Part shown: positions 6,944 to 48,524 of the stretch, piece by piece
How positions within the stretch are numbered: the stretch's first letter is position 1
Layout: each line of letters begins with the position of its first letter
NCBI GenBank assembly: GCA_964016885.1
Contig: OZ024757.1
Location: forward strand, 29,016,001 to 29,080,000
From: Eledone cirrhosa
Taxonomy: Eukaryota
Length of the DNA stretch: 64,000 nt
Reading direction: 5' to 3'
Notes under the pieces: model-generated
Database searches by the model: none
The model's input: only the letters and a program-made list of their open reading frames with translations
What the model was told of the DNA's origin: nothing
Made by a program: the position numbers and the translations under genes

Positions 6944-7065
6944 AAAGTAGGTTTATAAATATTAATTTTTTCTTATGTTCTTGTATCTGTTTCGTTGGCC
7001 TTAATGGTAGGTGTTAGAGACTATGGAGACACTGATGTGGGGTTCAATCTCAGTCCGAATCTGTA
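6944..7065 (+). ncRNA. candidate Pol III two-hairpin RNA unit (TATA, A box, B box); copies at 11505 and 16066
   Basis: AAGTAGGTTTATAAATATTAATTTT, then TGGCCTTAATGG (A box), GGTTCAATC (B box); stems GTTTC/GAGAC and ACTGA/TCAGT. Confidence 0.45.
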
Positions 7066-7122
7066 CTATATCTTGTTAAATTTAAATTTTTCTCTAGCAA
7101 AGTAAAAAATGAAATTATTATC

Positions 7123-7546
7123 TATAGATTTTGACTGAGATCGAAACCCAGAGCAGGTTCTCCACCATCTCTAATACCTACCATTAGGCCACGGAGACAG
7201 ATATAAAAACGGTGTGAAAATTAATATTTATAAAGTTACTTTTTTATTTTTGTTTTATACTATAAAAAATATAATACGACACACTGCCAGTGATGGAACC
7301 CCGAACCTGGACCTCTACCGTCTCTTAAACTTACCACTAGGCTAAAGGGACGGTTACGGAAACTAACTGAAAATTGATATATATAAACCTACTACTTCAT
7401 TCAATAAAATAAAAGCAACAAATACGCAGCTATTAGTATAGAACCTAACGGAAATCGAACCCTAAATCAGGATCTCCACCGTCTCTAGTACTTACCATTA
7501 GGCCACATGGACGGTTACAAAAATGCATTGAAAATTAATATTTACT
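7123..7546 (-). ncRNA. three tandem (~155-bp period) candidate Pol III two-hairpin RNA units; copies at 11684-12107 and 16245-16668
   Basis: each reads on minus: TATA element, ~30 nt, ACCGTC(TC)..TGGCCTAATGGTA..GAGACGGT, then CCTG..GGTTCGAT..; the TATA of the third unit is clipped by a MITE. Confidence 0.5.
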
Positions 7547-7547
7547 T

Positions 7548-7761
7548 ACTAGAAAAAACCGGAAGTGGAGAAAATTGAAAAACTTTTTCTTTTTCTCCCT
7601 CTGATTTTTCAAACAAAAGAAAATTTTATGTAAACAAAAACGAAATTTTTGCCACGAACGATAACTCGTCTCTGACTTAAATCCAAATTTTGGATAAAAA
7701 AAAATCAGAGGAAGAAAAAGAAGATGTTTTTCAATTTTCTCCACTTCCGGTTTTTTCTAGT
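7548..7761. mobile_element. MITE-like element with 36-bp perfect TIRs (copies 12109-12322, 16670-16883; diverged relative ~40800-40950)
   Basis: ACTAGAAAAAACCGGAAGTGGAGAAAATTGAAAAAC ... GTTTTTCAATTTTCTCCACTTCCGGTTTTTTCTAGT. Confidence 0.8.
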
Positions 7762-7889
7762 ATAAGTAAGATTTGAACTTATAATGCTGTACTTTGTAGT
7801 AATGTCCCATATTATATTCAACATATTTTAATTAAAATTTGTTTTTTTTATAAAAGAAAGAACAAAAATCCTTATTGAAATTAAGAAAT

Positions 7890-8110
7890 GAATTTTATTC
7901 AGTAAAGTTGTTTTTATTTTGTTTTCACTTCATTAACTGCTGAATACGTCTTTTGTTTTTGATTCTTTCTAACCATTGTTTACTGTAAATGGTGACTTCA
8001 AGGAACCTGGATTATTACCAAGTTTCACTGGATGATGGCATTATTTTTTTGTATTATTTTGTTGTCAGTGGACATCTGGACATCTATCTAAATACCTGGA
8101 ATAAACACAA
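7890..8110 (-). other. conserved ~200-bp terminal-exon-like module (type B); copies at +4561 and +9122; paralogue 41340-41560
   Basis: minus strand TTTATTCCAG|GTATTTAG..GATGTCCACTGA..CCATCATCCAGT..CCATTTACAGTA..AATAAA. Confidence 0.4.
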
Positions 8111-9749
8111 GGTGTGTGTTTTACGTAACATTTCATTTTAATGTCTGATGTTCCTGTATATCACATTTAAAATGTAACCAATAAACAAGACAGGGAGGCT
8201 ACATCAAAAGAAACCTACACAGACGAGGTATGAATAATCTAAAATTAATTTTAACAAACTATAAACGATGTTTAAAGAAAGACAAACATAATAATTACAG
8301 CCATAATCTAATATCTGAAGATCAACATTTTTCACGATAGAAATAAAACTAAATATGTAAAGTTTAGTGGCCCCTGATTTACTTGCTTTTAATTTCATTT
8401 TGATAATCTGTATTCTGTAGACATATATTTATGATTTTAATGATGAAATTTCCTCTTGTCTTTAAAAGATTATTACTTATAAACATTATAATAGTCACCC
8501 CCTCCTCTGGATTAATATATAGCATCATTCGAAGTAGCTAACCCCCAGGGGGTTCCTCATCTGGGCGATTTCAACTGTTGGGTGGGCGATGAGCAGCTGA
8601 ACAGAAAATTGATGACCATTGGAAACTTTGGTGGGCGATATAGAATTTCGAGATTTAAGAAGGTATGCTACCCGAAAACCTATTCAAGGAATATATATAC
8701 AAAGAACATGAATAAAAATCAGTAAGCTGATTGGGAAAATTGAACCAGGAACAAACATTTACGAAACATATTTGGTATACTTTGGAATATTTGCTATACA
8801 GGTGGCTGGTGGAACATTTTTTCATGTGAATGTGGGTAATGACGCCAAAATATTTGGCAACACTTGGCCTACACCTTACTAAATGTTCTGGAGACAAGCC
8901 TCTTAGCTATATATCATAGTTACTTCAATCCTTCATCTTCCACTGTTGGTGAAGTATTTCGATTTGTTATGACGATCGCAGAGTTAGATTTAGGACGTGG
9001 TGGCGTTCATGGGTTTCTTAGTGTTGTTACTAGAAAGGGTCGACTCTGTCTTTCACATTTCAGGTTTTTTCCTGAATTAAATATTCACTTTCTTTCTGAT
9101 CGGTCTAACAATGATTTGAACCTACAATGACTCCGTCTGTAATAATGTTCTCTTATTTGAAATATGTCATGTGTGTGTGAAAAAATATTCCAACTTAGAG
9201 CGACGTGCCCGTAAATTGTTTAGCCTGATTACTATATATAGATAATGTGTAGGTGTGTAATATTTGAGCATTCATTGAGGGTCTTTGCCGTAATTCCGAC
9301 TAGAAGTCATTATGTAGTTTTTTCGTCCGTTAAAAATAATGATTAAAATAATTCTATAGCCACCTCATCACATATTATATAATTTCCACCAATAACTACA
9401 TTATATCCTTAAATATGACACCAAGACATAATTTGTATTAAAACCTCAATTTTTAAATAATTTTACCCCACCTTTGTGTTCAGATTAATCCATAATTTTA
9501 TGATTTTGGAGCAGATAACTTATAGTACCAGTCATGTACTGGGATCAATTTAACGGATTGGTTCCTCCCCGCAAATTACTTGACTTTTGCCTAAGTAAGA
9601 CATACTCACAGAATGTATCGATGTATATGTATGAATGTATATATATATATATAATAATAATATATATATATATATCTATATATTTATGTTTACAATAAAA
9701 ATAGACAAACAATTTAATGATAATATGAAATGAAATTATTATTATTTAT

Positions 9750-9945
9750 TAATATTTTTATTGTTTTCACTGCATTAACTTCTGAGTGTGACTTTGTTTT
9801 TCTTACTATTTTCTACTGTAAATGGCGGCTGAGAGGAAATTGGATTATTACTAAGGTTTACTGGATTGTGGTGTTTCTTTATTGTTTTATATTTCATTCA
9901 GTGGACATCAGGATAACTTTCTATATACCTGGGATAAATGTAAAG
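9750..9945 (-). other. terminal-exon-like module (type A), paralogous to 7890-8110; copies at +4561 and +9122; paralogue 44420-44605
   Basis: TTTATCCCAG|GTATATAG..GATGTCCACTGA..GCCGCCATTTACAGTAG..AATAAA. Confidence 0.4.
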
Positions 9946-9989
9946 AGTACTGTCTTTCATCTGCAGAACAATGGTGATGTCTTCTTATT

Positions 9990-10995
9990 TTTACATTTAC
10001 TTCTGCAATACTGTATATTGTAGTCTTTTCATTATTTTAAATATTTCTATCATGTCACTCGTTTGATATATCTCCTCGAAAGATGTAGTTATTCAGGGCT
10101 TTACATTGGAATAGTGTACTACTATTTAAATATATATTTCTATCATGTCCCCCCCACCCTCTTAGATTTATCTCCTCTAAATTTGCAATCCCTAAAGTTT
10201 AACATCTTTCTTCAGAAGACAGATTTCTTAATAATTCTGGTGTTTTCTGTTTTGTTCTTCTCTCCATTCCTTCAATAGCTTCTCCGTATTTTCTGAAGTC
10301 CTCTGACCATACCTCTAGACAATATTCTAGGTGGTATCACACATATCATTCAACTAGTGTTTTAGACCTCTCGACATTTAGCTAGGCAAAGGAATGTTTT
10401 ATTATTCCTATCATCTGAATTCCTTTTTTTTCTTCAACATGTTTCGCCATCTTTAAAATCATATTCATACGTATTCACAATTCCTCGTGGAGGGGTATAA
10501 GAGACATGTATAAATATAGCTGCATATTACTACAAAATAACTTGAACCATATCGCGAAACATTTTGTAAAGTATCTCTGTAATTATTCTCATTTCGATTT
10601 TCTGTAGAATGTATTGACGTTTAAGATAGAGACAATTGCCCTTCTTCTAATAATCTCTTTGTCCATTCCATGTTTAGTCTCACAAAATATTGTTAATGCA
10701 AGATTTTGCTCTAATGTAATAAATGTTACTTTTGAAAGACCGAAGTTCTCAATTTTCTTCTTTCGCTTGGAGATGGATGACGAATTATGTGATGGGGAGG
10801 AAAAAGCCACGACCTTCTTCTCTCGTTACAGAAGGCTAACTGACAACGGCTTTCGCAGGCGTGACTAGTACTGTACACCAATGAACAATACTGCCTTTTA
10901 TATACCGTGACAACTGGAAAGACGTGACAAATAAGGATACACTCTGCTCTCCTTATCAACATTGTCCGAGTCTGAGGACCTTTCCTCCCTGGTTA
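9990..10995 (-). mobile_element. highly decayed CR1/L2-clade LINE ORF2 remnant (copy 14551-15556; truncated third copy ending 19184)
   Basis: frameshifted traces of KSPGPDNI, IYKKG, NYRPVSLL, HLEYCxxVWS, LRNLSxEER and [11 protein letters not shown]. Confidence 0.7.
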
Positions 10996-13900
10996 AGGAG
11001 TGAGATAAAATATTAGGGATCAATCTCTACCAATAATTTGATTAAATCATATTTAACCAGAGACTGTTATGTCGTGGTTGTTGCTATATTTTATAGTCGT
11101 GGTTTCAATGTTTAACAGGGGTTGTAGAATTAGCTTTATCTAATTATTATCAAACAAAACAGATTTATATATTGTCGCCGTTGTACGTTAAAATCACATA
11201 TATATTTATATACACACCAAGGATGGAGGGACGACGGAATTGAAAACCATTATTGCTGAGTACATCACGGCAAGATCTAATCTAATACACAGACACACTC
11301 TCCCGTATATATTTAATTATCAGTTATGACCATGAAGAAGGTACCTGTAGATCATCTGGTTGTAGGATCTAATGAACCCGAAAGAAAGTGAAAATATATT
11401 TTATGAAAGCCCCAGAAGAATAAATGTAAACATTGACCCGATTATAGTAGAAATAACAATGAGAAAGCCATGAACGCCAGCACATCTATTTTGCTTGGAA
11501 ATTGAAAGTAGGTTTATAAATATTAATTTTTTCTTATGTTCTTGTATCTGTTTCGTTGGCCTTAATGGTAGGTGTTAGAGACTATGGAGACACTGATGTG
11601 GGGTTCAATCTCAGTCCGAATCTGTACTATATCTTGTTAAATTTAAATCTTTCTCTAGCAAAGTAAAAAATGAAATTATTATCTATAGATTTTGACCGAG
11701 ATCGAAACCCAGAGCAGGTTCTCCACCATCTCTAATACCTACCATTAGGCCACGGAGACAGATATAAAAACGGTGTGAAAATTAATATTTATAAAGTTAC
11801 TTTTTTATTTTTGTTTTATACTATAAAACATATAATACGACACACTGCCAGTGATTGAACCCCGAACCTGGACCTCTACCGTCTCTTATACTTACCACTA
11901 GGCTAAAGGGACGGTTACGGAAACTAACTGAAAATTGATATTTATAAACCTACTACTTCATTCAATAAAATAAAAGCAACAAATACGCAGCTATTAGTAT
12001 AGAACCTAACGGAAATCGAACCCTAAATCAGGATCTCCACCGTCTCTAGTACTTACCATTAGGCCACATGGACGGTTACAAAAATGCATTGAAAATTAAT
12101 ATTTACTTACTAGAAAAAACCGGAAGTGGAGAAAATTGAAAAACTTTTTCTTTTTCTCCCTCTGATTTTTCAAACAAAAGAAAATTTTATGTAAACAAAA
12201 ACGAAATTTTTGCCACGAACGATAACTCGTCTCTGACTTAAATCCAAATTTTGGATAAAAAAAAATCAGAGGAAGAAAAAGAAGATGTTTTTCAATTTTC
12301 TCCACTTCCGGTTTTTTCTAGTATAAGTAAGATTTGAACTTATAATGCTGTACTTTGTAGTAATGTCCCATATTATATTCAACATATTTTAATTAAAATT
12401 TGTTTTTTTTATAAAAGAAAGAACAAAAATCCTTATTGAAATTAAGAAATGAATTTTATTCAGTAAAGTTGTTTTTATTTTGTTTTCACTTCATTAACTG
12501 CTGAATACGTCTTTTGTTTTTGATTCTTTCTAACCATTGTTTACTGTAAATGGTGACTTCAAGGAACCTGGATTATTACCAAGTTTCACTGGATGATGGC
12601 ATTATTTTTTTGTATTATTTTGTTGTCAGTGGACATCTGGACATCTATCTAAATACCTGGAATAAACACAAGGTGTGTGTTTTACGTAACATTTCATTTT
12701 AATGTCTGATGTTCCTGTATATCACATTTAAAATGTAACCAATAAACAAGACAGGGAGGCTACATCAAAAGAAACCTACACAGACGAGGTATGAATAATC
12801 TAAAATTAATTTTAACAAACTATAAACGATGTTTAAAGAAAGACAAACATAATAATTACAGCCATAATCTAATATCTGAAGATCAACATTTTTCACGATA
12901 GAAATAAAACTAAATATGTAAAGTTTAGTGGCCCCTGATTTACTTGCTTTTAATTTCATTTTGATAATCTGTATTCTGTAGACATATATTTATGATTTTA
13001 ATGATGAAATTTCCTCTTGTCTTTAAAAGATTATTACTTATAAACATTATAATAGTCACCCCCTTCTCTGGATTAATATATAGCATCATTCGAAGTAGCT
13101 AACCCCCAGGGGGTTCCTCATCTGGGCGATTTCAACTGTTGGGTGGGCGATGAGCAGCTGAACAGAAAATTGATGACCATTGGAAACTTTGGTGGGTGAT
13201 ATAGAATTTCGAGATTTAAGAAGGTATGCTACCCGAAAACCTATTCAAGGAATATATATACAAAGAACATGAATAAAAATCAGTAAGCTGATTGGGAAAA
13301 TTGAACCAGGAACAAACATTTACGAAACATATTTGGTATACTTTGGAATATTTGCTATACAGGTGGCTGGTGGAACATTTTTTCATGTGAATGTGGGTAA
13401 TGACGCCAAAATATTTGGCAACACTTGGCCTACACCTTACTAAATGTTCTGGAGACAAGCCTCTTAGCTATATATCATAGTTACTTCAATCCTTCATCTT
13501 CCACTGTTGGTGAAGTATTTCGATTTGTTATGACGATCGCAGAGTTAGATTTAGGACGTGGTGGCGTTCATGGGTTTCTTAGTGTTGTTACTAGAAAGGG
13601 TCGACTCTGTCTTTCACATTTCAGGTTTTTTCCTGAATTAAATATTCACTTTCTTTCTGATCGGTCTAACAATGATTTGAACCTACAATGACTCCGTCTG
13701 TAATAATGTTCTCTTATTTGAAATATGTCATGTGTGTGTGAAAAAATATTCCAACTTAGAGCGACGTGCCCGTAAATTGTTTAGCCTGATTACTATATAT
13801 AGATAATGTGTAGGTGTGTAATATTTGAACCTTCATTGAGGGTCTTTGCCGTAATTCCGACTAGAAGTCATTATGTAGTTTTTTCGTCCGTTAAAAATAA

Positions 13901-16900
13901 TAATTAAAATAATTCTATAGCCACCTCATCACATATTATATAATTTCCACCAATAACTACATTATATCCTTAAATATGACACCAAGACATAATTTGTATT
14001 AAAACCTCAATTTTTAAATAATTTTACCCCACCTTTGTGTTCAGATTAATCCATAATTTTATGATTTTGGAGCAGATAACTTATAGTACCAGTCATGTAC
14101 TGGGATCAATTTAACGGATTGGTTCCTCCCCGCAAATTACTTGACTTTTGCCTAAGTAAGACATACTCACAGAATGTATCGATGTATATGTATGAATGTA
14201 TATATATATATATAATAATAATATATATATATATATCTATATATTTATGTTTACAATAAAAATAGACAAACAATTTAATGATAATATGAAATGAAATTAT
14301 TATTATTTATTAATATTTTTATTGTTTTCACTGCATTAACTTCTGAGTGTGACTTTGTTTTTCTTACTATTTTCTACTGTAAATGGCGGCTGAGAGGAAA
14401 TTGGATTATTACTAAGGTTTACTGGATTGTGGTGTTTCTTTATTGTTTTATATTTCATTCAGTGGACATCAGGATAACTTTCTATATACCTGGGATAAAT
14501 GTAAAGAGTACTGTCTTTCATCTGCAGAACAATGGTGATGTCTTCTTATTTTTACATTTACTTCTGCAATACTGTATATTGTAGTCTTTTCATTATTTTA
14601 AATATTTCTATCATGTCACTCGTTTGATATATCTCCTCGAAAGATGTAGTTATTCAGGGCTTTACATTGGAATAGTGTACTACTATTTAAATATATATTT
14701 CTATCATGTCCCCCCCACCCTCTTAGATTTATCTCCTCTAAATTTGCAATCCCTAAAGTTTAACATCTTTCTTCAGAAGACAGATTTCTTAATAATTCTG
14801 GTGTTTTCTGTTTTGTTCTTCTCTCCATTCCTTCAATAGCTTCTCCGTATTTTCTGAAGTCCTCTGACCATACCTCTAGACAATATTCTAGGTGGTATCA
14901 CACATATCATTCAACTAGTGTTTTAGACCTCTCGACATTTAGCTAGGCAAAGGAATGTTTTATTATTCCTATCATCTGAATTCCTTTTTTTTCTTCAACA
15001 TGTTTCGCCATCTTTAAAATCATATTCATACGTATTCACAATTCCTCGTGGAGGGGTATAAGAGACATGTATAAATATAGCTGCATATTACTACAAAATA
15101 ACTTGAACCATATCGCGAAACATTTTGTAAAGTATCTCTGTAATTATTCTCATTTCGATTTTCTGTAGAATGTATTGACGTTTAAGATAGAGACAATTGC
15201 CCTTCTTCTAATAATCTCTTTGTCCATTCCATGTTTAGTCTCACAAAATATTGTTAATGCAAGATTTTGCTCTAATGTAATAAATGTTACTTTTGAAAGA
15301 CCGAAGTTCTCAATTTTCTTCTTTCGCTTGGAGATGGATGACGAATTATGTGATGGGGAGGAAAAAGCCACGACCTTCTTCTCTCGTTACAGAAGGCTAA
15401 CTGACAACGGCTTTCGCAGGCGTGACTAGTACTGTACACCAATGAACAATACTGCCTTTTATATACCGTGACAACTGGAAAGACGTGACAAATAAGGATA
15501 CACTCTGCTCTCCTTATCAACATTGTCCGAGTCTGAGGACCTTTCCTCCCTGGTTAAGGAGTGAGATAAAATATTAGGGATCAATCTCTACCAATAATTT
15601 GATTAAATCATATTTAACCAGAGACTGTTATGTCGTGGTTGTTGCTATATTTTATAGTCGTGGTTTCAATGTTTAACAGGGGTTGTAGAATTAGCTTTAT
15701 CTAATTATTATCAAACAAAACAGATTTATATATTGTCGCCGTTGTACGTTAAAATCACATATATATTTATATACACACCAAGGATGGAGGGACGACGGAA
15801 TTGAAAACCATTATTGCTGAGTACATCACGGCAAGATCTAATCTAATACACAGACACACTCTCCCGTATATATTTAATTATCAGCTATGACCATGAAGAA
15901 GGTACCTGTAGATCATCTGGTTGTAGGATCTAATGAACCCGAAAGAAAGTGAAAATATATTTTATGAAAGCCCCAGAAGAATAAATGTAAACATTGACCC
16001 GATTATAGTAGAAATAACAATGAGAAAGCCATGAACGCCAGCACATCTATTTTGCTTGGAAATTGAAAGTAGGTTTATAAATATTAATTTTTTCTTATGT
16101 TCTTGTATCTGTTTCGTTGGCCTTAATGGTAGGTGTTAGAGACTATGGAGACACTGATGTGGGGTTCAATCTCAGTCCGAATCTGTACTATATCTTGTTA
16201 AATTTAAATTTTTCTCTAGCAAAGTAAAAAATGAAATTATTATCTATAGATTTTGACCGAGATCGAAACCCAGAGCAGGTTCTCCACCATCTCTAATACC
16301 TACCATTAGGCCACGGAGACAGATATAAAAACGGTGTGAAAATTAATATTTATAAAGTTACTTTTTTATTTTTGTTTTATACTATAAAACATATAATACG
16401 ACACACTGCCAGTGATTGAACCCCGAACCTGGACCTCTACCGTCTCTTATACTTACCACTAGGCTAAAGGGACGGTTACGGAAACTAACTGAAAATTGAT
16501 ATTTATAAACCTACTACTTCATTCAATAAAATAAAAGCAACAAATACGCAGCTATTAGTATAGAACCTAACGGAAATCGAACCCTAAATCAGGATCTCCA
16601 CCGTCTCTAGTACTTACCATTAGGCCACATGGACGGTTACAAAAATGCATTGAAAATTAATATTTACTTACTAGAAAAAACCGGAAGTGGAGAAAATTGA
16701 AAAACTTTTTCTTTTTCTCCCTCTGATTTTTCAAACAAAAGAAAATTTTATGTAAACAAAAACGAAATTTTTGCCACGAACGATAACTCGTCTCTGACTT
16801 AAATCCAAATTTTGGATAAAAAAAAATCAGAGGAAGAAAAAGAAGATGTTTTTCAATTTTCTCCACTTCCGGTTTTTTCTAGTATAAGTAAGATTTGAAC

Positions 16901-19184
16901 TTATAATGCTGTACTTTGTAGTAATGTCCCATATTATATTCAACATATTTTAATTAAAATTTGTTTTTTTTATAAAAGAAAGAACAAAAATCCTTATTGA
17001 AATTAAGAAATGAATTTTATTCAGTAAAGTTGTTTTTATTTTGTTTTCACTTCATTAACTGCTGAATACGTCTTTTGTTTTTGATTCTTTCTAACCATTG
17101 TTTACTGTAAATGGTGACTTCAAGGAACCTGGATTATTACCAAGTTTCACTGGATGATGGCATTATTTTTTTGTATTATTTTGTTGTCAGTGGACATCTG
17201 GACATCTATCTAAATACCTGGAATAAACACAAGGTGTGTGTTTTACGTAACATTTCATTTTAATGTCTGATGTTCCTGTATATCACATTTAAAATGTAAC
17301 CAATAAACAAGACAGGGAGGCTACATCAAAAGAAACCTACACAGACGAGGTATGAATAATCTAAAATTAATTTTAACAAACTATAAACGATGTTTAAAGA
17401 AAGACAAACATAATAATTACAGCCATAATCTAATATCTGAAGATCAACATTTTTCACGATAGAAATAAAACTAAATATGTAAAGTTTAGTGGCCCCTGAT
17501 TTACATGCTTTTAATTTCATTTTGATAATCTGTATTCTGTAGACATATATTTATGATTTTAATGATGAAATTTCCTCTTGTCTTTAAAAGATTATTACTT
17601 ATAAACATTATAATAGTCACCCCCTTCTCTGGATTAATATATAGCATCATTCGAAGTAGCTAACCCCCAGGGGGTTCCTCATCTGGGCGATTTCAACTGT
17701 TGGGTGGGCGATGAGCAGCTGAACAGAAAATTGATGACCATTGGAAACTTTGGTGGGTGATATAGAATTTCGAGATTTAAGAAGGTATGCTACCCGAAAA
17801 CCTATTCAAGGAATATATATACAAAGAACATGAATAAAAATCAGTAAGCTGATTGGGAAAATTGAACCAGGAACAAACATTTACGAAACATATTTGGTAT
17901 ACTTTGGAATATTTGCTATACAGGTGGCTGGTGGAACATTTTTTCATGTGAATGTGGGTAATGACGCCAAAATATTTGGCAACACTTGGCCTACACCTTA
18001 CTAAATGTTCTGGAGACAAGCCTCTTAGCTATATATCATAGTTACTTCAATCCTTCATCTTCCACTGTTGGTGAAGTATTTCGATTTGTTATGACGATCG
18101 CAGAGTTAGATTTAGGACGTGGTGGCGTTCATGGGTTTCTTAGTGTTGTTACTAGAAAGGGTCGACTCTGTCTTTCACATTTCAGGTTTTTTCCTGAATT
18201 AAATATTCACTTTCTTTCTGATCGGTCTAACAATGATTTGAACCTACAATGACTCCGTCTGTAATAATGTTCTCTTATTTGAAATATGTCATGTGTGTGT
18301 GAAAAAATATTCCAACTTAGAGCGACGTGCCCGTAAATTGTTTAGCCTGATTACTATATATAGATAATGTGTAGGTGTGTAATATTTGAACCTTCATTGA
18401 GGGTCTTTGCCGTAATTCCGACTAGAAGTCATTATGTAGTTTTTTCGTCCGTTAAAAATAATAATTAAAATAATTCTATAGCCACCTCATCACATATTAT
18501 ATAATTTCCACCAATAACTACATTATATCCTTAAATATGACACCAAGACATAATTTGTATTAAAACCTCAATTTTTAAATAATTTTACCCCACCTTTGTG
18601 TTCAGATTAATCCATAATTTTATGATTTTGGAGCAGATAACTTATAGTACCAGTCATGTACTGGGATCAATTTAACGGATTGGTTCCTCCCCGCAAATTA
18701 CTTGACTTTTGCCTAAGTAAGACATACTCACAGAATGTATCGATGTATATGTATGAATGTATATATATATATATAATAATAATATATATATATATATCTA
18801 TATATTTATGTTTACAATAAAAATAGACAAACAATTTAATGATAATATGAAATGAAATTATTATTATTTATTAATATTTTTATTGTTTTCACTGCATTAA
18901 CTTCTGAGTGTGACTTTGTTTTTCTTACTATTTTCTACTGTAAATGGCGGCTGAGAGGAAATTGGATTATTACTAAGGTTTACTGGATTGTGGTGTTTCT
19001 TTATTGTTTTATATTTCATTCAGTGGACATCAGGATAACTTTCTATATACCTGGGATAAATGTAAAGAGTACTGTCTTTCATCTGCAGTACAATGGTGAT
19101 ATCTTATATTTACATTTACTTCTGCAATACTGTATATTGTAGTCTTTTCATTATTTTAAATATTTCTATCATGTCACTTGTTTG

Positions 19185-22100
19185 AAACGAGAGAGAGAGA
19201 GAAAGATGAAACGGGTGAGCGAGAGATGAGAGCAACGAGAGATGAGAGCAACGAGACCGTGAGAGAGAGATGAGAGTAACGAGAGAGAAATAGATGAAAG
19301 GAGAGAGAGGGACGGAAGGAGAGAGAGAGAGGGGTGGATGGAGAGAGAGAGGGATGGATTGGGAGAGAGATGGAGAGAGAGAGGGGGATGGAGAGAGAGA
19401 GGGGGATGGAGAGAGAGAGAGAGATGGAGGGAGAGAGATGGAGATGGAGAGAGAGAGGGATGGAAGGAGAGTGAGAGGGATGGATACAGAGAGAGGGATG
19501 GATGGATGGAGAGAGGGATGGAAGGAGAGAGGGATGGAAGGATGGAGAGAGAGAGAGGGATGGAAGGAGAGAGGGATGGAAGGAGAGAGAGATGGAAGGA
19601 GAGAGAGGGATGGAAGGAGAGAGAGAGAGAGGAATGGAAGGAGAGAGAGAGAGTGAGAGAGGGGTGGATGGAAAGAGAGAGGGATTGGATGGAAAGTGAG
19701 AGAGGGATAGAATGGAGAGAGAGAGAGTGAGAGAGGCGTGGATGGAAAGTGAGAGAGGGATGGATGGAGAGAGAGAGAGCGGGATGGAGAGAGAGAGGGG
19801 TGCATGGAGAGAGAGGGATGGATGGATGGAAGGAGAGAGAGAGAGAGAGGGGGATGGAAAGAGAGAGAGGGAGGGATGGATGGAGAGAGAGGGAGGGAGG
19901 GAGGGAAGGAGAGAGAGAGGGAGGGAGGGATGGAAGGAGAGAGAGAGGGGAATGGAAGGAGAGAGAGAGAGAGGAATGGAAGGAGAGAGAGAGAGGGATA
20001 GATGGAGAGAGAGAGAGGAATGGAGAGAGAGAAGGAGAGGGATGGATGAAAGGAGAGAGAGAGAGCGGGATGGATAGAGAGCGGGATGGATAGAGAGGGG
20101 AGGATGGATAGAGAGGGGAGGATGGAAGGAGAGAGAGCGGGATGGATAGAGAGAGAGAGAGGGATGGAAGGAGAGAGAGGGATGGAAGGAGAGAGAGATG
20201 GATGGAGAGGGAGAGAGAGGGGGATGGATAGAGAGAGGGGTGGAAGGAGAGAGAGAGGGATGGATGGAAGGAGAGAGAGAGGGATGGATGGATGGAGAGA
20301 GAGGGAGATGGAAGGAGAGAGAGGGAGGGATGGATGGAGAGAGAGGGATGGATGGATGGAGAGAGAGGGATGGATGGAGAGAGAGAGATGGATGGAGAGA
20401 GAGAGATGGATGGAGAGAGAGGAATGGAAGGAGAGAGAGAGAGGGGTGGATGGAGAGTGAGAGAGGGATGGATGGAGAGAGAGAGGGAGGGAGGGGGATG
20501 GAGAGAGAGAGAGGGATGGATGTAGAGAGAGAGAGAGGGGTGGATGGAGAGAGAGCGGGATGGATAGAGAGGGGTGGGTAGAGAGAGAGCGGGATAGAAT
20601 GGAGAGAGAGAGAGGGGTGGATGGAGAGAGAGAGGGAGATGGATGAAGAGGGAGAGAGAGGGGGATGGATAGAGAGAGAGAGGGAGATGGATGAAGAGGG
20701 AGAGAGAGGGGGATGGATAGAGAGAGAGAGGGATGGAAGGAGAGAGAGAGAGGGGTGGATGGATGGATGGATGGAGAGAGAGAGAGAGAGGGATGGGGAC
20801 GGAGAGAGAGAGAGAGAGAGAGAGGGGATGGATGGAGAGAGAGGGATGGATGGAAGGAGAGAGAGATGGAAGAAGAGAGGAGGGATGGATGGAAGGAGAG
20901 AGGGTGATGGAAGAAGAGAGAGGGATGTGGATAGAGAGAGAGGGATGGAAGGAGAGAGGGATGTGGATAGAGAGAGAGGGATGGAAGGAGAGAGAGAAGG
21001 AGAGAGAGGGATGGAAGGAGAGAGGGATGGAAGGAGAGAGAGAGGGGGATGGATGGAGAGAGAGGGAGGGAGGGATGGAAGGAGAGAGAGGGATGGAGAG
21101 GGAGAGAGAGGGGGATGGATAGAGAGAGGAATGGAATGGAGAGAGAGGGATGGAAGGAGAGAGGAATGGAATGGAGAGAGAGGGATGGAAGGAGAGAGGA
21201 ATGGAATGGAGAGAGAGGGATGGAAGGAGAGAGAGCGGGATGGAGAGAGAGAGGGGGATGGATAGAAAGAGAGAGGGATGGATGGATGGAGAGAGAGAGA
21301 AAGCGGGATGGACAGAGAGAGAGAGAGGAAAGGAAGGACAGAGAGAGGGATGGATGGAGAGAGAGGAAAGGAAGGACAGAGGGATGGAAGGAGAGAGAGA
21401 GAGAGAGATGGATGGAGAGGGAGAGAGAGGGGGATGGATGGAGAGAGAGAGAGAGGAATGGAAGTAGAGAGAGGGATGGATGGAAGGAGAGGGAGGGATG
21501 GATGGAAGGAGAGAGAGAGAGAGGGAGGGATGGAAGGAGAGAGAGGGATGGATGGATGGAGAGAGAGATATTTTAAATATTTCTATCATGTCACTCGTTT
21601 GAAACGGGTGAGCGAGAGATGAGAGCAACGAGAGATGAGAGCAACGAGACCGTGAGAGAGAGATGAGAGTAACGAGAGAGAGTAATGAAACGAGAGAGAA
21701 ATAGATGAAAGGAGAGAGAGAGGGACGGAATGAGAGAGAGAGAGGGACGGAAGGAGAGAGAGAGGGATGGATGGATGGAGAGAGAGGGGTGGATGGAGAG
21801 AGAGGAAAGGAAGGAGAGAGAGAGGAATGGCAGGAGAGAGGGATGGAGAGAGAGGGAGATGGAAGGAGAGAGAGGGGGAAGGATGGATGGGGAGAGAGAG
21901 GGATGGAAGGAGAGAGAGAGAGAGAGAGATGGGGAGAGAGAGAGAGAGATGGGGAGAGAGGGAGAGAGGGATGGAAGGAGAGAGAGAGGGATGGATGGAT
22001 AGAAAGAGAGAGAGGGATGGATGGAGAGAGAGAGGGGGATGGAAGGAGAGGGATGGAAAGAGAGGGATGGAAGGAGAGGGATGGAAGGAGAGGGATGGAA

Positions 22101-25100: not shown

Positions 25101-25211
25101 AGAGAGGGATATGGATAGAGACAGAGGGGGAAGGATGGAGAGAGAGGGATGGAAGGAGAGAGAGAGAGGGATGGAAGGAGAGAGAGAGAGGGATGGATGG
25201 AGAGAGAGAGG

Positions 25212-25249
<38 letters not shown>

Positions 25250-33148: not shown

Positions 33149-33149
33149 T

Positions 33150-34278: not shown

Positions 34279-34280
<2 letters not shown>

Positions 34281-34362: not shown

Positions 34363-34365
<3 letters not shown>

Positions 34366-35058: not shown

Positions 35059-35134
<76 letters not shown>

Positions 35135-35137
<3 letters not shown>

Positions 35138-35365: not shown

Positions 35366-35482
35366 GTAAATCTAAGTCGTCTAAGTACAGAGGTACAACG
35401 TCAAACCACTCTAGCACATTACTATAAAAAGTTATTTCAAAAATAAATAGATGATAAATAGAAAAAGAGAAATGGGGAATAC

Positions 35483-35524
<42 letters not shown>

Positions 35525-35529
35525 GGGTG

Positions 35530-38120: not shown

Positions 38121-38449
38121 CATGGTCCCATCATCATTTGCTGATACGATTATTGCATACACAACACAAGTTTAAAGAGCTATCTGTTTAGAAACCATCA
38201 ACCCAAGCCACCATTTATACACTGAGGTATAACAGTTGAAGGACATCACTGCAAATCAGGTGGTTGTAGCATCAAATCAAACCTAAAGAGATAAAAATAA
38301 AAGTCAGATATATTTTCTGAAAACTACAGAATAGTAAAAGATATGTCGACACTTTTGCGGTATTAATAAGACTGAGAAAGGTATGAACGCCACCACGTCA
38401 ATTAAGCTTCGAAAATAGAAAGTAGGTTTATATATATATTAATTTTCAT

Positions 38450-39115
38450 TTTCTTCCCTAATTCTGTATTTTGAAGTCCTTTCATTATTTTAAATATTTC
38501 TATCATGTCACTCGTTTGATTAATCTCCTCCAAAGTTGTAATTCTAAGTGTTTGTCCTTGGTATAGTGAACTAATGTTGATATTTTCAAGTCTTGGCATT
38601 TATATGGAATAGTGTACTAATATTTAAATAGTCTTCATATTTTTATCCTGTCTCACCTAAGACTTATCTCCTCTAAATTTACAAAAGCTTCTCATTTCTT
38701 TCACAAGATAGATCTTTAAATAATTATAGTGTTTTCTGTTTTCTTCTTATCTGGGTTGCTTCAAGAGCCTCACCATTTTTTCGGATGTCGGTTGACCATG
38801 GCCCAAAACAATATTCTCAGTGGTATCACATATTCATGTAGAGTTTTAGATTTTTCAGCATTTAGTTAGGAAAAAGAATGTTTTATTATTTCTATTATCC
38901 GTCTCGCTGTTTTGCTTCAACATGGTTAGCCATCTTTCAATTCATATTCATAGATATTCACAATTCTTCTGTGATAAGTATAAGAAGCTCGTTATTCGCT
39001 CAACATTCGATACCAAAACATGCTTCCTATTCATAACTTCGTTGTACGAATATAATAATTAAAGTATATATACAAGCCATGTATATATATCTATATATAT
39101 ATATATATATATATA

Positions 39116-39148
<33 letters not shown>

Positions 39149-39800: not shown

Positions 39801-40194
39801 GAGTGAGATAAAATATTAGGGATCAATCTCTAGCAATAATGTAATTAAATTATAGTTAATCAAAACTGTTGTGTCGTGGTTGTTGTTATATTTTATAGTC
39901 GTGGTTTCAATGTACATCAGAGGTTGTAGAATTAGTTTTATCTAATTATTATCAAACAAAAAATGATGTATATATTGTCGTTGTACGTTGAAATCATATA
40001 TATACATTTATATATATACGCCAAGGATGGAGGGAAGATAGAATTGAAAACCATTATTGCTGAACACAACATTACAGGATCAAATCTAACACACACACAC
40101 ATATATATATAATAATCTCAGTCAGGAATCTCTCGAGAAATTTAATTTTTTTAAATTTTTCATAAAATGAAATAAAAATAGCGATTGCAGGAAT

Positions 40195-40605
40195 TTGATT
40201 AATATCGAACCGCAGACTAGGATCTCCACCACCCCTAATACGTACCACTAGTCCACGGAAACTGTTATAAAAACTTACTGAACATTTATATTTATAAACC
40301 TACTTTTTCAATTTTTTATAAAAACAAAATTTCTGTACAACCTGACAGTGATTGAACCCATAACCAGTATCACCACTGTCTCTAATATTTTCCAGTAGGC
40401 CATGGAGACGGTTACGAAATTAATATTTATAAACTTACTTTTTAATGGTTTTTTATTTTAGAAGAGGTAAACTAAAATTAATAATACCCATAGTGTAGAA
40501 CCTGAAAGAGATAGAACCCTAAACCAGGATTTCACCGTCTCTAATACATACCACTGGGCCAGAGAGAATGTACGAATCCGTTCTGAAAATTAATATTTAT
40601 GAAAC
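40195..40605 (-). ncRNA. three tandem candidate Pol III two-hairpin units (diverged paralogue of 7123-7546)
   Basis: TATA-like element, TGG.C.A.TGG A box, GGTTC.AT B box, ~150-160-bp period. Confidence 0.45.
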
Positions 40606-42893
40606 GACATTTTGTTCGGAAGTAATTCAAATAAACTATTGTTTCAGACGATCCCGTAACAAGTTGAAGCAGCGATTCTTTCCTTTAACTTTAATTCGTA
40701 CTCATAATAAATAAATAAACATATATATTTATGTGTGTATACATATATATGCGTTGCTTTGCTGCTATTTCTAGCAAATTTATTGTTGTTTTTATGAAAA
40801 ATACAGAAACCGGAACTGAAAAGATTGAAAAATTTTGGTCAAAATTCAGGCGAACTTTTTTAAACAAAAGGATTTTTTTTGTAAACAAACTTGAAATTTT
40901 TGCCAAGAAACATAACTCTTGCCTGACTTAAACGCAAAAATTGATGCAAAAATGTTGCGTGTGTGCAAATTATAGGGACTGTACAAATTCGTTGTGACAA
41001 TTAATATTTATAAAATTACATTTTTTTCGGTTGAAAACTTGATGTTCATGGCTTTGTCGGGACGTCCTTGAATTCATCCACCGAAGGGAATTCATAAAGT
41101 AAATCTAGACTTTATTTCTCATTGCTCTAGGCTTGATTTGAACCTACAACGACTCCGTCTGCAATAATGTCATACGTCATTCCAGCTTAGTCCGTCGTAC
41201 CCGTTAATTGGTAAACGTGATTCCTATATATATACATATAAGTTAAGATTTGAACCTACATTGCTATGCTTAATTTATATTAATAAGTGTGTTTTATAAA
41301 AGAAAGTAAAAAAACAATTTAATGAAAGTAACAAATTTATTTTATTCAGTAATGTTTTTTTTTATTTTATGTCTTCACTTCATTAACTGCTGAATAGTTC
41401 TCTTGTTTTTGTTTGTTCTTAACATTATTTACTGTAAACGGCGACTCTGACGAGACTGGATTATTACCAAGTTTTACTGGATGATGGCATTTCCTTATTG
41501 TATTATTTTGTTGTCAGTCGACATCTGGACATCTCCCTAAATACCTGGAATAAACATAAGGTGTGTCTTTTACGTTACATTTCATTTAATATCTGATATT
41601 CCAATGGATCACTTTTAAAATAAAACCAATACACAGGACAGATAGACTACATCAAAAGAGACCACAGAGATGAGGTACGAATAACCTTAAATTAGTTTTT
41701 AAAAAAAAGACAATGTTTAAAGAAAGACAAACATTAAAAAAAGGATTTCCAACAAACACGTAAAGACAAAGACACCCACAATTTAATATCTGAAGATCAA
41801 CATTTTTCACGATATAAATAAAACTAAATATGTAACGTTAAGTGACCTCTCATTTATTTGCTCTAACTTTATTTTACTAATCTGTATTCTGTAGACATAT
41901 ATTTTCGTTGGTGTACATTAAGATTTCGTTGATGAAAGTTTTCACTCGTCTTTAGATATTTATTTCTTATAAAAGTTATAATACTCACCTCTTCCTATTA
42001 TATTTTCATATATACATATATATATTTACTTTTACCTGGAGTTTCGACCGATAAATAGTATTAGCAATTGGAAAGACCAATGGAGATATTGTTTCCTCGC
42101 TCCGATTTGACGAATGTCGATATATATATATATATATATACACATACATATTTACTCACTTCTATGTAAATATACATACATATATATTAAAAACACATAC
42201 CATATACCATCATAATAACGATTGACTAACCATCAGGACACATACTTGCTCATGTGAGAATTTTCACAGAGACACTTACGAAAACCGAACTTGCAACGCC
42301 ACGTACACTTACATACACATATATGTACATACACACATACAGAACAGGTATGACTTATATAGGTACATTAAAGTTTGGGTTTCGCTATTGTACCATTTGA
42401 GGTAGTTAGAAAGAAGTACCAGTGTAGTACTGGGGTTGATTCTTTACTCGATGATGCAAGACAAGTTTTCAACGAGTCAGAAAGGAATATTTGTGATATG
42501 AAGGGAGAACCTCTCTGAATAAATATTAGATAGTTAAGATGCTACGTAAAGCAGGTGGTGACAACATCGAGTACCACAGATGCCATGTGGAAATAGACAT
42601 CGGAATATATATATACAAAGATAGGGGGACCTTATCATCATAGACAGTTGGGCTTATGAACACACACACACACATTTATATACATACATGCATACATACA
42701 TATGGCTTCTGCAGGACTAGAACTGTTTCTTTCGGAAGAAATCAGGGGCTTTCCTGGTGATTTCTTCCGAATGAAACAGTTCTAGTCCTGTAGAAGCCAT
42801 TTCTATATTAAATATTATTTATTAAGTATTTATACTCTGCTATGTAATGAGTACGTTACTTATTGTGGTTACCGCCGATTGAACCCGGAATAA

Positions 42894-42924
<31 letters not shown>

Positions 42925-43548
42925 CGGGTGCACAGCTGTACGGTGTCCTCAAGTTAACACTCAGGATTCCGCCCGATGTCTCGTCACGCATCACTACATC
43001 TTCGAGTAAATGTTGATTAGTAAACAAACCGTGTATCTCACATGTAAGAGGGAAAGCCATAGCAAGTGTTGAGGATAAGAGGCGTGTGAAAATAATAATA
43101 ATAATAGTGTTAAAATTATTAATAGTAGTAGTTGTAATGATAAAGTGAGCGGGACAACATTGCAATATCGGTAGAGGGTCGGACGCCATGCTTTCCAGCA
43201 TAGTTACGTCCCTTTACGATCCGAGTTCAAATCCCGCCGAGGTTGACTTTGCCTTTCATCCTTACGGGGTCGATAAAATAAAGTACCAGTAATGCACTGG
43301 GTAATTTCTGGCCTTGTGCCTAAAGTAGAAACAATTATTATAAATACTTATGTACACACAAGCTTACACAGGTACACATTCGTACACGTATCTACACACG
43401 TACATACATAAACATTTATAAATAAAAGACTAAGATGATAAAAAGAACATATATTACCGTATTGAGTTTGGAACGATACACTTGACGCTGAGTTCTTGAA
43501 TCTGATCCCAAAAAGCTGCAAAAAATTAGTAAAACCCCCTTATTTTAT

Positions 43549-43655
43549 ATAGATCCTGGTCAAGATTGAAACCCAGACCAGGATATCCACCGTCTCTCGC
43601 TACAGAGACAGCTTCAAAATAATATTAAAAATTAATATTTATAAACTTACTTTTT
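43549..43655 (-). ncRNA. two-hairpin unit with A-box loop deleted but both stems intact
   Basis: GCTGTCTCT-GTAGCG-AGAGACGGT and ATCCTGGTC-14nt-GACCAGGAT, 30 nt after TATAAATA. Confidence 0.45.
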
Positions 43656-46250: not shown

Positions 46251-46729
46251 GAATATATATATATATACACATATACTAGATATGAACACGGATCTCCCTA
46301 TCTCACACAAACACAGCCTTTGTATAGGAATGGCGCAATGACAGGAGTTGTATTTATGTAGCATCTGTAACTACATATTGTATGTTCAAATATTCGAAGT
46401 TGAAATCAACATTAGTTCAATGAGATATGAACTTGTGTAAGTAACATGGAACCCATATGTAACCGGTCGACTTGCTCACAAGTACGACCAAATAAAACAC
46501 ATAAATGTGTGTGTGTATTATATATAACTATACTAGATATAGACGTCAACAGGAAGACTGTACATGGCCAATTGTAAGTTCGAATCAACTATAAACCAAT
46601 GAGGAATTTTGAAAAACTTTAAATAAAATACATAAATGTGTGTGTGTGTGTGTGTGTGTTATGTATATAAGATATGGGAACCACCCTACGTTGTCGGTTG
46701 ACTTGCTCGAAATAGTAGCCAAAGAGCGC

Positions 46730-46798
46730 CTTCGCGCATGCGCAGTACGGTCCGATCTTCGCGCATGCGCACTACGGTCCGACCTTAGCGCATGCGCA
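46730..46798. promoter_or_regulatory. three GCGCATGCGC (NRF1/Ewg/P3A2-type) motifs at 27-bp period; mirrored at 47157-47225
   Basis: motifs at 46734, 46761 and 46788 in otherwise CpG-poor DNA, just upstream of TATAAATA at 46826. Confidence 0.55.
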
Positions 46799-46855
46799 TT
46801 TTTAACCCGATACAAAAAGTAGGTTTATAAATATTAATTTTCACTATATTTTTAA

Positions 46856-46961
46856 GGTGGTCTCGTTGGCCGAGTGGTACGGTGCGTTGAGTCTGCTGAG
46901 ATACTGGTCGGGGGTCGATCCCGGCCAACGTCTACACATAGGGGGTCTTATTAAACTTTTT
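46856..46961 (+). ncRNA. candidate intact ~105-nt Pol III RNA gene
   Basis: TATA at -30, A box TGGCCGAGTGG 46867, B box GGGTCGATCCC 46912, T5 at 46957-46961. Confidence 0.5.
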
Positions 46962-46993
46962 CAGTTTTTATTTTATCTCTTAGAGAAAAACTG

Positions 46994-47099
46994 AAAAAGT
47001 TTAATAAGACCCCCTATGTGTAGACGTTGGCCGGGATCGACCCCCGACCAGTATCTCAGCAGACTCAACGCACCGTACCACTCGGCCAACGAGACCACC
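46994..47099 (-). ncRNA. identical convergent copy of the candidate Pol III RNA gene
   Basis: exact reverse complement of 46856-46961. Confidence 0.5.
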
Positions 47100-48524
47100 T
47101 TAAAAATATAGTGAAAATTAATATTTATAAACCTACTTTTTGTATCGGGTGAAAAATGCGCATGCGCTAAGGTCGGACCGTAGTGCGCATGCGCGAAGAT
47201 CGGACCGTACTGCGCATGCGCGAAGGCGCTCTTTGGCTACTATTTCGAGCAAGTCGACCGACAACGTAGGGTGGTTCCCATATCTTATATACATAACACA
47301 CACACACACACACACACATTTATGTATTTTATTTAAAGTTTTTCAAAATTCCTCATTGGTTTATAGTTGATTCGAACTTACAATTGGCCATGTACAGTCT
47401 TCCTGTTGACGTCTATATCTAATATAGTAATATATAACACACAGACACACACACATTTATGTGTTTTATTTAAAGTTTTTCAAAACTCCTCATTGGTTTA
47501 TAGTTGATTCGAACTTACAATTGGCCATGTACAGTCTTCCTGTTGACGTCTATATCTAGTATAGTTATATATAACACACAGACACACACACACATCTATG
47601 TGTTTTATTTAAAGTTTTTCAAAACTCCTCATTGGTTTATAGTTGATTCGAACTTACAATTGGCCATGTACAGTCTTCCTGTTGACGTCTATATCTAGTA
47701 TAGTTATATATAACACACAGACACACACACACATCTATGTGTTTTATTTAAAGTTTTTCAAAACTCCTCATTGGTTTATAGTTGATTCGAACTTACAATT
47801 GGCCATGTACAGTCTTCCTGTTGACTTCTATATCTAGTATAGTTATATATAACACACAGACACACACACATTTATGTGTTTTATTTGGTCGTCCTTGTGA
47901 GCAAGTCGACCGGTTACATATGGGTTCCATGTTACTTACAAAAGTTCATATCTCATTGAACTAACGTTGATTTCAACTTCGAATATTTGAACATACAATA
48001 TGTAGTTACAGATGCTTCATAAATACAACTCCTGTCATTACGCCATTCTTATACAAAAGGTGTGTTTGTGTGAGAAAGGGAGATCCGTGTTTATATCTAG
48101 TATAGTTATGCATAATACACAGACACACAAGTATGCTTTTGATTATATTAAAACATTTTCAGACTTTTTGGTTAACAGTTTAATGTTTATTGGAAACCAC
48201 AACGGGATTGACAGTACTTCGAATATATTTGAACATACAGTATGTAGTTACAGATGCTTCATAACTACAACACCTATACATAGGAATGCGTGAAAACGTG
48301 TGTATGTGAGATAGTTTAAAGAGGGAAATTAGTGTTTATATCTAGTATACACATAACACACAGACACACGAATGTGCTTTTTAATATATTAAGGCATTTT
48401 CAAACTTTCTTCTTAACAGTTTAGTGTTTATTCGATGCCACAACAACGGGATTGGCAGTACTGCACTAATGTATCGTAAATTAAATTTGTCATGCGTCAT
48501 TCATATATATGTATATATATATAA

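Follow-up and report, generated by a model that had tools for sequence, protein, structure and literature searches.

The window, i.e. the whole analysed stretch of 64,000 nucleotides, contains repeated copies of a short unit with a TATA element and candidate A and B boxes. A sequence-only reading had interpreted them as about 18 small Pol III RNA genes, clustered locally and sharing a covarying fold of two hairpins. The question raised by the locus is whether these units are genes, to what class they belong, and how they have spread. The answer that we consider fairly probable is a lineage-specific multigene family of tRNA-like units, likely transcribed by Pol III into RNAs of ~90-110 nt with a predicted 5' hairpin, and spread by tandem duplication and, as one facing pair, as cargo of a hAT element.

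The inventory of units was correct. A profile built from the family (the unit search relied on profile HMMs, not on an Infernal model) identified 18 full units where they had been reported, nine of them distinct, with scores of 72-102 bits; the reversed window, used as a control, produced zero matches at E<=0.5. Each of three copies of a 4561-bp repeat has four units; a group of three is found at 40.2-40.6 kb and a single unit at 43.5 kb, and two form an inverted pair at 46.8/47.1 kb. The tandem repeat (6827..19185, 2.7 copies, 99.4-99.7% identical) carries one unit on the plus strand and three on the minus strand per copy. The plus-strand unit (6943..7091) has TATAAATA at 6954, a spacer longer by one base, a predicted start at ~6983, both boxes, and the first T4 at 7087. 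It is arranged tail to tail with the minus-strand unit 7105..7243 (TATA at 7232, predicted start 7204, first T4 at 7109). Two more minus-strand units are 7266..7395 (TATA variant at 7385, predicted start 7357, first T4 at 7269) and 7411..7546 (predicted start 7518). The latter has lost the 5' half of its TATA, a loss missed by the sequence-only reading, and adjoins a foldback element at 7525-7787. All four units recur at +4561 and +9122, in the second (11504..12107) and third (16065..16668) copies of the cassette.

On the minus strand, unit 40175..40307 (TATA at 40296, predicted start 40268, first T4 at 40178) is accompanied by unit 40326..40442 (TATA at 40431) with a spacer deletion of 12 nt, and by unit 40474..40612 (TATA variant at 40601, predicted start 40573). 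The minus-strand unit 43531..43654 (TATA at 43643) has its A box deleted, which had been overlooked. The plus-strand unit 46815..46961, hereinafter the 46814 type, has TATA at 46826, start at 46854 and terminator at 46957-46961, and spans about 107 nt; its start and terminator are marked by retrocopies (L061-L066) described below. Its mirror copy (46994..47140, minus strand) lies inside a 988-bp inverted repeat, 46490-47471. Besides the full units, there are two TATA-only stubs, one without a body (38418..38450, plus strand) and one retaining only the TATA block, spacer and first bases (40974..41022, minus strand).

The promoter anatomy is very regular. In the 308 TATA-bearing units sampled over the genome, the body starts at 28 nt in 259, at 27 nt in 30 and at 29 nt in 4; the stem starts 2-3 nt after the body start, and thus the previously noted fixed distance of 30 nt agrees with these counts. 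The free variation of the spacer also stands, as its identity is 0.4-0.7 compared to about 0.95 in the TATA block, the latter value being inflated in the array sample since many loci were seeded by TATA patterns. The alignment of 102 representatives has a pyrimidine at index 27 in all 100 rows with a letter there, and a purine at index 28 in 98 of 99. The boxes are near-invariant, although the units are only about 70% alike: conservation is 0.90-0.97 at the A-box invariants, 0.88 at G86 of the B box, and 0.95-0.99 at T87, T88, C89, A91 and T92. The distance between the boxes (T41 to T87) is 46 nt. The A and B boxes of class I tRNA are also 46 nt apart. The first T4 beyond the B box is at +97 (median), and only 9/308 units have T4 inside +1..+66. 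The units thus have a TATA at a fixed distance, a pyrimidine/purine start, A and B boxes and an oligo-T terminator, as in type-2 Pol III genes.

The units were compared with known classes of Pol III genes. ARAGORN found zero tRNA genes in the window and zero in 80 family loci, no cloverleaf with an acceptor stem and anticodon arm being seen, and the Rfam tRNA model had no match at E<=1. None of five genomic tRNAs tried as a parent scored above box-preserving shuffles (87-282 of 500 were as high). The Rfam covariance models gave 143 matches at E<=1, none at the gathering score and none that would assign the units to a family of Pol III RNAs such as vault or Y RNA, and SRP had no match. The comparison with the 7SL Alu domain, reached by 9/1000 box-kept shuffles, was the best of eight comparisons and had the boxes out of register. 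Parentage from 7SL, tRNA or SINE heads found no clear support. The U6 loci of the genome have another motif in common, located about 70 nt upstream (judged by eye), and a U6-type PSE, as expected of a type-3 gene, was rejected for the units.

The proposed covarying fold did not survive. In the nine window units, 71.6% of cells pair as compared to 72.6% in shuffles (404/500 as high), and the covariation score is reached by 336/500 shuffles. In the 102 representatives, most pairs form as often as expected under independence, and the proposed pair with the highest MI-APC comes 126th among 4095. The change from GCCT/AGGT to GCCG/CGGT is indeed present in the sequence, but the loop shifts from 6 to 7 nt; the outer stem of the 46814 type contains a U-U mismatch and G-U pairs. 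Of the nine window units, just one has a more stable fold than its shuffles (z -3.2), the rest ranging from -1.1 to +0.5. Pair-keeping changes are in excess in the outer stem, but slid controls show this as well, and no constraint was detected in hairpin 2. On the other hand, substitutions at G sites of the 5' stem are roughly half as frequent as at the remaining G positions of the body (p=3e-4), the share of C>T there is 58/69 versus 196/344, and the inner stem has clade-level swaps from C-G to T-A. These patterns suggest selection, in the form of a wobble-type constraint confined to the 5' stem.

The cluster is not local. A degenerate pattern of the TATA block has 2,776 exact matches genome-wide and 0 in the control; thus the units belong to a family of thousands. 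A search of metagenome contigs for the exact TATA 27-mer gave zero matches, a result of little informative value. In the arrays, the cassettes are diverse, with 2-5 units each in 3-40-kb modules and ~70% identity between subfamilies, and many array copies occur near contig ends. Identity across modules is about 0.7 in the body and flank alike, with no peak over the body. No protein-coding role for the modules was found in the 120/367 ORFs scanned, where the domain matches were limited to RT, PHD, PIF1, zinc finger, GIY-YIG and Tc3, with zero in the window.

Most copies elsewhere in the genome are one convergent pair carried within a ~1-kb hAT-type MITE with a 14-bp TIR and an 8-bp TSD. Self-comparison of this element reveals the inverted pair together with the TIRs and the 8-bp TSD. 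Both ends are present at 16/72 loci, and among 14 sites outside (TA)n the TSD is exact over 8 bp at six and has at most one mismatch at nine. No autonomous hAT partner with matching ends was found in the 1.5-kb flanks of 30 of the 150 scored hAT-domain loci. The literature searches gave no precedent for a complete convergent Pol III gene pair inside a DNA transposon.

A rival explanation is that the units are plain internal sequence of a DNA transposon, the window modules being its old copies. A match to a transposon interior with divergence uniform across the TATA, spacer and stems had been named in advance as evidence against the gene reading. Most genome copies are indeed internal cargo of a TIR/TSD-bounded element, but the window copies are not, and divergence differs among the TATA, spacer and body. 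The window lacks a TIR matching the MITE and aligns only to its cargo part (positions ~150-790 of 905) at 64-68%. The A and B units of the MITE form two young clades nested within the far greater diversity of arrays, with the window units outside (midpoint root). Finally, the window units sit in old modules, ~3.4 kb long and repeated in tandem. We consider the transposon-interior explanation very improbable.

Twelve dispersed copies lack the TATA and begin at or after +1, six of them of the 46814 type and six from the 16 matches of a body-pattern search. The first base is exactly +1 in L062, L162 and L163, the last having the 7411..7546 unit as its closest parent. Upstream sequence of the parent is retained in none, although a (TA)n overlap leaves L061 ambiguous. 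The six 46814-type copies have an exact parent, and five of them end at +105..+112, at or just beyond its first T-run at +104. We regard the twelve as probable retrocopies that preserve, like fossils, a trace of Pol III transcription. Two have candidate TSDs of 10-11 nt, and several are fused to SINE heads or repeat tails, as if the units were master genes of a SINE family. However, the units have no LINE-derived tail of their own, the 3' partners differ among retrocopies and no tail is shared, and the 46814 type has six retrocopies against 32 gene copies. Further, 308/327 sampled bodies keep the TATA block (the sample is biased to TATA loci), as do 10/16 matches of the body-only search. It is highly unlikely that the units are SINE masters.

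More evidence for transcription comes from mutation rates. In 32 TIR-anchored MITE copies with a star-like tree, observed/expected ratios relative to the MITE flank are 2.9 [2.2-3.8] in the spacer with T-tract, 1.9 [1.65-2.1] in the body and 2.0 [1.65-2.4] in the trailer, while the TATA (0.9) is not raised and the boxes are at 1.3. Private substitutions alone yield 1.38, 1.06 and 1.09 for the body, spacer and trailer, respectively, with a filter that drops recurrent hits. The MITE copies show no strand bias of C>T/G>A, and copies with at least two promoter hits are as hypermutated as the intact ones (2.46 vs 2.57; n=14, 27). Conversion between the arms is not considered the main cause of the excess, which persists at sites where both arms are identical (A=B); a small bias toward the partner-arm base exists (share 0.50-0.59 vs 0.37-0.40, p 0.02-0.04). 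Cruciform mutagenesis is disfavoured, as the TATA block is the best-matched part of the arms, yet is not elevated.

In arrays the excess is smaller: 2.0 in the spacer, 1.7 in the body and 1.4 in the trailer (the interval of the latter includes 1), with the body exceeding the flank in only 29/49 pairs. These values are from pairs picked without bias, which corrects the overstated ratios of one set selected on the same flank that served as the denominator. The array TATA block evolves at 0.46-0.59 of the flank rate. For human tRNA genes, flank divergence of about 4x and 3x is described, with a peak 12-15 nt upstream (PMC6130373), and the spacer of our units maps to about -16..-11 in the tRNA register. 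The MITE pattern resembles transcription-associated mutagenesis of such genes, with its divergence peak just upstream of the body, low divergence at the TBP site and raised trailer; the difference is that tRNA bodies are strongly conserved in that account (PMC6130373), whereas here the body is about 2x above the flank. As the TATA in MITE copies evolves at the flank rate, the contrast between a fixed TATA and a free spacer reflects largely a hypermutable spacer, and not a strongly selected TATA.

Taken together, the retrocopy ends, pyrimidine/purine start, conserved boxes and mutation footprint likely point to real transcription. They bear out the earlier assignment to DNA-duplicated, TATA-containing type-2 Pol III units that are not tRNAs. 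The same rates allow for an explanation where the units are transcribed but functionless, that is, decayed tRNA- or SINE-derived promoters amplified as a satellite and transposon cargo, whose conservation is only apparent since just the bubble and transcribed part are hypermutable. Indeed, the MITE TATA and boxes evolve at about the flank rate and not below it, the body diverges faster than the flanks, covariation is absent and many units are damaged. Against it stand the low rate of the array TATA block and the near-invariant boxes in dissimilar units, and the slow G sites and wobble bias of the 5' stem suggest selection; we consider this explanation unlikely. Activity of tDNA as a barrier is established. 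The units could likewise be landing sites of TFIIIC/TFIIIB, acting as chromatin barriers in subtelomeric and tandem arrays, with RNA as a by-product. This agrees with the conserved promoter, the free RNA sequence and the many array copies close to contig ends. However, a barrier has no need of a constrained 5' stem, and we regard this role as improbable.

From the observed anatomy, copy number, MITE carriage, retrocopy ends and rate differences we infer Pol III as the enzyme, current expression, a fold and possibly some function. In the preferred reading, TFIIIC would bind the A and B boxes and TFIIIB/TBP would occupy the TATA block; Pol III would initiate at the purine 28 nt past the TATA and stop at the first T-run, with convergent neighbours sharing a T/A-rich terminator stretch. 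Germline transcription would increase the mutation rate of the melted spacer and transcribed part, eroding the RNA sequence, and LINE machinery would reverse-transcribe some of the transcripts, frequently yielding chimeras with SINE or LINE ends. Selection would keep little beyond the promoter and the 8-bp 5' stem, and hence the RNA most likely acts as a hairpin RNA of the snaR/OAX type, abundant and under weak constraint, and not as a tRNA. A more ambitious version, which we hold only tentatively, is that of a previously undescribed, abundant and functional Pol III RNA family, an analogue of snaR/BC1 with a selected 5' hairpin and more than 1000 array genes. The transposon would then have seeded about two thousand still-transcribed convergent pairs throughout the chromosomes, all of them TFIIIC/TFIIIB sites from which long hairpin RNA might arise. 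A body evolving faster, not slower, than the flanks counts against the preferred reading.

Several known systems are similar in part. The snaR genes of great apes are comparable in that they encode small Pol III RNAs, possess A/B boxes and are lineage-specific, form tandem arrays that arose through segmental duplication, and have retroposed relatives; they are Alu/7SL-derived, number about 30, and the main text of the report does not mention a TATA (PMC3045588). By comparison, the family described here comprises thousands of units, has a TATA block of 28 bp, includes convergent pairs and is carried in part by a DNA transposon. Tandem units with a tRNA-derived Pol III segment are described for OAX/satellite I of Xenopus, the newt tRNA-Glu repeat and Rana/polIII as uniform satellites (PMC10702118), whereas our cassettes are diverse. 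Helenus/TRIMp3, as described, is a non-autonomous mobile element dispersing tRNA-like promoters for Pol III in which the A/B boxes are conserved, but it is an LTR retroelement with direct LTRs, PBS, PPT and a 4-5-bp TSD (PMC10886601). Identity with it is ruled out by the inverted ends, internal inverted gene pair and 8-bp TSD of our carrier. The carrier, not the window units, shares with hAT MITEs such as Mar and Vege (PMC3517528) a short TIR (here 14 bp), an 8-bp TSD, a length of about 1 kb, the lack of coding sequence and a high copy number, and differs in holding two apparently transcribed Pol III genes with upstream promoters.

A general caution is that a conserved promoter next to a free spacer can stem from differences in mutation rate. 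If transcribed as proposed, the units would outnumber ordinary Pol III gene families and, because they are invisible to ARAGORN and Rfam, would be a portion of the Pol III transcriptome missing from annotations. The MITE copies provide a natural experiment: roughly two thousand star-like copies under little selection, where transcribed and untranscribed DNA of the same age adjoin, so that the mutagenicity of Pol III transcription may be measured base by base.

Profile searches of the window (G000:C18:29,016,001-29,080,000 of a 3.0 Gb genome) recovered all 18 units proposed in the sequence-only reading, nine of them distinct, together with two stubs, and gave no matches in the reversed window. 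Twelve units belong to a four-unit cassette present three times within a 4561-bp tandem repeat (99.4-99.7% identity). The claim that they are not tRNAs holds, as ARAGORN found no tRNA in the window; in a comparison with Rfam, no family reached the gathering score there. In the 7438-type unit, the 5' half of the TATA block is replaced by a foldback element (7525-7787, also at +4561 and +9122). One unit pair lies within a 988-bp inverted repeat (46490-47471, 96.8%) that also contains 27-bp palindromic repeats (46729-46798 and 47157-47226); read-through here would produce a long hairpin RNA. This pair recurs approximately every 15 kb on contig C24. A segment of about 250 bp is present in all modules (7847-8105, 9689-9938, 41293-41570, 44391-44610). 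It is probably non-coding module DNA; a 99-aa frame in one copy (9724-10023) is hydrophobic and matches nothing in Pfam. The window also contains a GA-rich satellite of 11.6 kb (19261-30898), a 29-bp minisatellite (31716-32640), an 8-kb (TA)n tract (55945-64000) and a 165-aa open frame (53840-54337) that has no Pfam matches and resembles, by eye, the last exon of a monocarboxylate-transporter-type membrane protein.

The anatomy of the unit was derived from 418 matches, reduced to 104 representatives at 90% identity with two retrocopies (dispersed copies without TATA) removed. Conservation is about 0.95 in the block from -10 to +17 around TATAAATA and 0.4-0.7 in the following 6-7 bases. All of 100 rows have a pyrimidine at position 27, and 98 of 99 have a purine at position 28. 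The invariant positions of the A and B boxes, which are 46 nt apart, score 0.88-0.99. The TATA block is present in 308 of 327 distinct bodies (the predicted transcribed parts), an inflated conservation because TATA patterns seeded many loci; conservation of the boxes is free of this seeding. The 19 bodies lacking the block are 10 retrocopies and 9 damaged array units. The TATA spacing is indeed fixed, being exactly 28 nt to the predicted start (+1) in 259 of the 308 TATA-bearing bodies, and the first T4 past the B box has a median position of +97. A U6-like promoter was rejected, the upstream block being unlike, by eye, the motif ahead of the U6 genes of this genome. About 34 U6 genes form a tandem array (G000:C19:31.78-31.84 Mb), as do about 21 7SL genes (G000:C12:42.10-42.13 Mb); a short motif some 70 nt upstream is common to the U6 loci and is a candidate PSE of the lineage.

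When the 46814 unit served as a DNA query, 32 near-identical gene copies were found along with six dispersed ones (94-99%) without the upstream part, and a body-only pattern had 16 matches, six without TATA. Eleven of 12 retrocopies were aligned to a parent; L175, whose best match is a neighbouring SINE, was judged by eye. An exact +1 start is seen in L062, L162 and L163; L168 starts at +2, and L061 at +1 behind a (TA)n run; the others are 5'-truncated. Five of six retrocopies of the 46814 type end between +105 and +112, the parental T-run being at +104. Since starts and ends both fit Pol III rules, we infer germline transcription, at some time, of at least some of the units. Candidate target duplications flank L063 (11 nt) and L163 (10 nt); the closest sampled parent of L163 is the window 7438 unit (89.6%). 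L064 and L065 are directly continued by a tRNA-derived SINE head, and L061, L066 and L168 by short tails which we take to be LINE/SINE 3' ends. Such fusions are similar to U6/LINE chimeras, which are reportedly known.

The unit family is genuine, and it far exceeds the local group of about 18 initially described: it is genome-wide. The genome has 291 matches to an exact 27-mer from the TATA block, 493 to an array-type 26-mer and 2,776 to a degenerate 26-mer, each with zero matches for its control. The array-type pattern was found in 35 of 93 sampled array units, and the degenerate one had 36 matches across 72 transposon loci with 69 unit bodies. Rough extrapolation from these counts and match rates suggests about 1,300 array units and 4,000 transposon-borne ones. 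Array units are arranged as convergent pairs or as 3+1 cassettes. Their modules, about 3.4 kb long with flanks sharing 60-72% identity, are nested in 7-40-kb repeats on C18, C24, C26 and C15 and close to several contig ends. Reverse-transcriptase ORFs occur within unit arrays (L225:7873-9999, L150:246-1550, L153:7420-8514), arrays close to contig ends among them, and two of the three ORFs are followed by a PHD finger. On C9, frames of a PIF1 helicase and of C2H2 type lie close to family units (L227:3867-4454 and 8652-9374) and are likely a Helitron.

The first 100 degenerate-pattern matches on C1 are scattered, many being paired 250-280 bp apart. Twenty paired loci have an element in common. 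It is about 0.9-1.15 kb long (78-95% identity to the consensus), has a 14-bp TIR and 8-bp target duplications and is frequently inserted in (TA)n. Short TIRs and 8-bp TSDs are features that define hAT elements (PMC3517528), and this MITE shares them. An exact 27-mer of its right end occurs 252 times in the genome. Among 72 TIR-anchored loci, 32 have both units, 37 have at least one, and 16 show both ends; at 14 non-(TA)n sites the TSD is exact in six and near-exact in nine. No autonomous hAT partner was found among 30 of 150 hAT-domain loci. In a midpoint-rooted tree of 164 units (142 columns), the two MITE units form separate clades, A (26 rows, 100/98) and B (24 labelled and three unlabelled MITE-locus rows, 100/99), nested in a larger clade with array units; the window units fall outside. 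The simplest reading is that the MITE captured one array pair. Origin of the window units as transposon copies is unlikely, as the window lacks the MITE TIR and only the cargo aligns.

For 32 MITE copies (branch length 0.10 internal, 2.11 terminal), parsimony events were counted against MITE flank that was matched for base and free of CpG. Spacer and T-tract reach a ratio of 2.9, the trailer 2.0 and the body 1.9; the stretch immediately upstream has 1.35, the boxes 1.3 and the TATA block 0.9. A second count agrees. The excess persists at arm-identical sites (spacer 3.0, body 1.8, TATA 0.8), and 55 of 64 MITE units surpass their own flank. Array pairs gave 3.7-4.0 in the spacer and 2.3-2.5 in the body under a biased design, and 2.0 (spacer), 1.7 (body), 1.4 (trailer), 0.46 (TATA) and 1.2 (boxes) in 49 pairs picked on separate flank, a few of them non-orthologous by position. 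This profile resembles that of active tRNA genes, for which PMC6130373 gives divergence of about 4x in the 5' flank and 3x in the 3' flank, highest 12-15 nt upstream and lowered where TBP binds. However, private-only MITE counts are near flat (body 1.38, spacer 1.06), strand bias is absent in MITE copies, and promoter-damaged copies show no clear sparing. On the array tree, C>T changes outnumber G>A changes 1.7-1.85-fold in both the spacer and the trailer. Judging from sequence, the units are probably transcribed by Pol III.

The covarying two-hairpin fold proposed earlier is not supported, as covariation is not significant. This fold is the predicted minimum for the near-consensus copy L159 (z -2.8) and for unit 43549 (z -3.2). 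For 46814 the same fold is predicted, yet shuffles are as good (z -0.7), and most remaining window units have other predicted folds. On a 308-unit tree, pairs of the outer 5' stem were kept 101 times and broken 102 times, above the expected keep share of 0.33, but slid controls behave much alike; hairpin 2 matches expectation. The four G of the stem change at 0.38-0.54, compared with 0.52-1.61 for 18 G elsewhere in the body (p=3e-4), and changes at stem C and A favour transitions that preserve wobble pairing. Where both partners changed on one branch, pairing survived in 12 of 19 cases for hairpin 1 and in 9 of 19 for hairpin 2. Taken together, these results give modest support to selection on the 5' stem and none to selection on hairpin 2.

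Similarity of the consensus to five genomic tRNAs and to the local SINE head is confined to the boxes, and its match to 7SL is weak and out of register; box spacing alone points to putative tRNA ancestry. The units would work like snaR (PMC3045588) and amphibian tRNA-like tandem repeats (PMC10702118), yet are members of neither, and the MITE carrier parallels Helenus (PMC10886601) but is not Helenus. Dispersed tRNA-like sequences with near-identical flanks and differing anticodons (L128, L130-L138 on C1-C5 and C28; ARAGORN calls Val, Ala, Thr, Asp) likely belong to another mobile element that carries a tRNA-like sequence, either a DNA transposon or one of Helenus type. No earlier description of the unit family was found in the literature searched, although a deposited Repbase/Dfam consensus may exist. 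The RNA of the family is probably weakly constrained and any function of it putative; the family itself has probably spread in part as hAT cargo.
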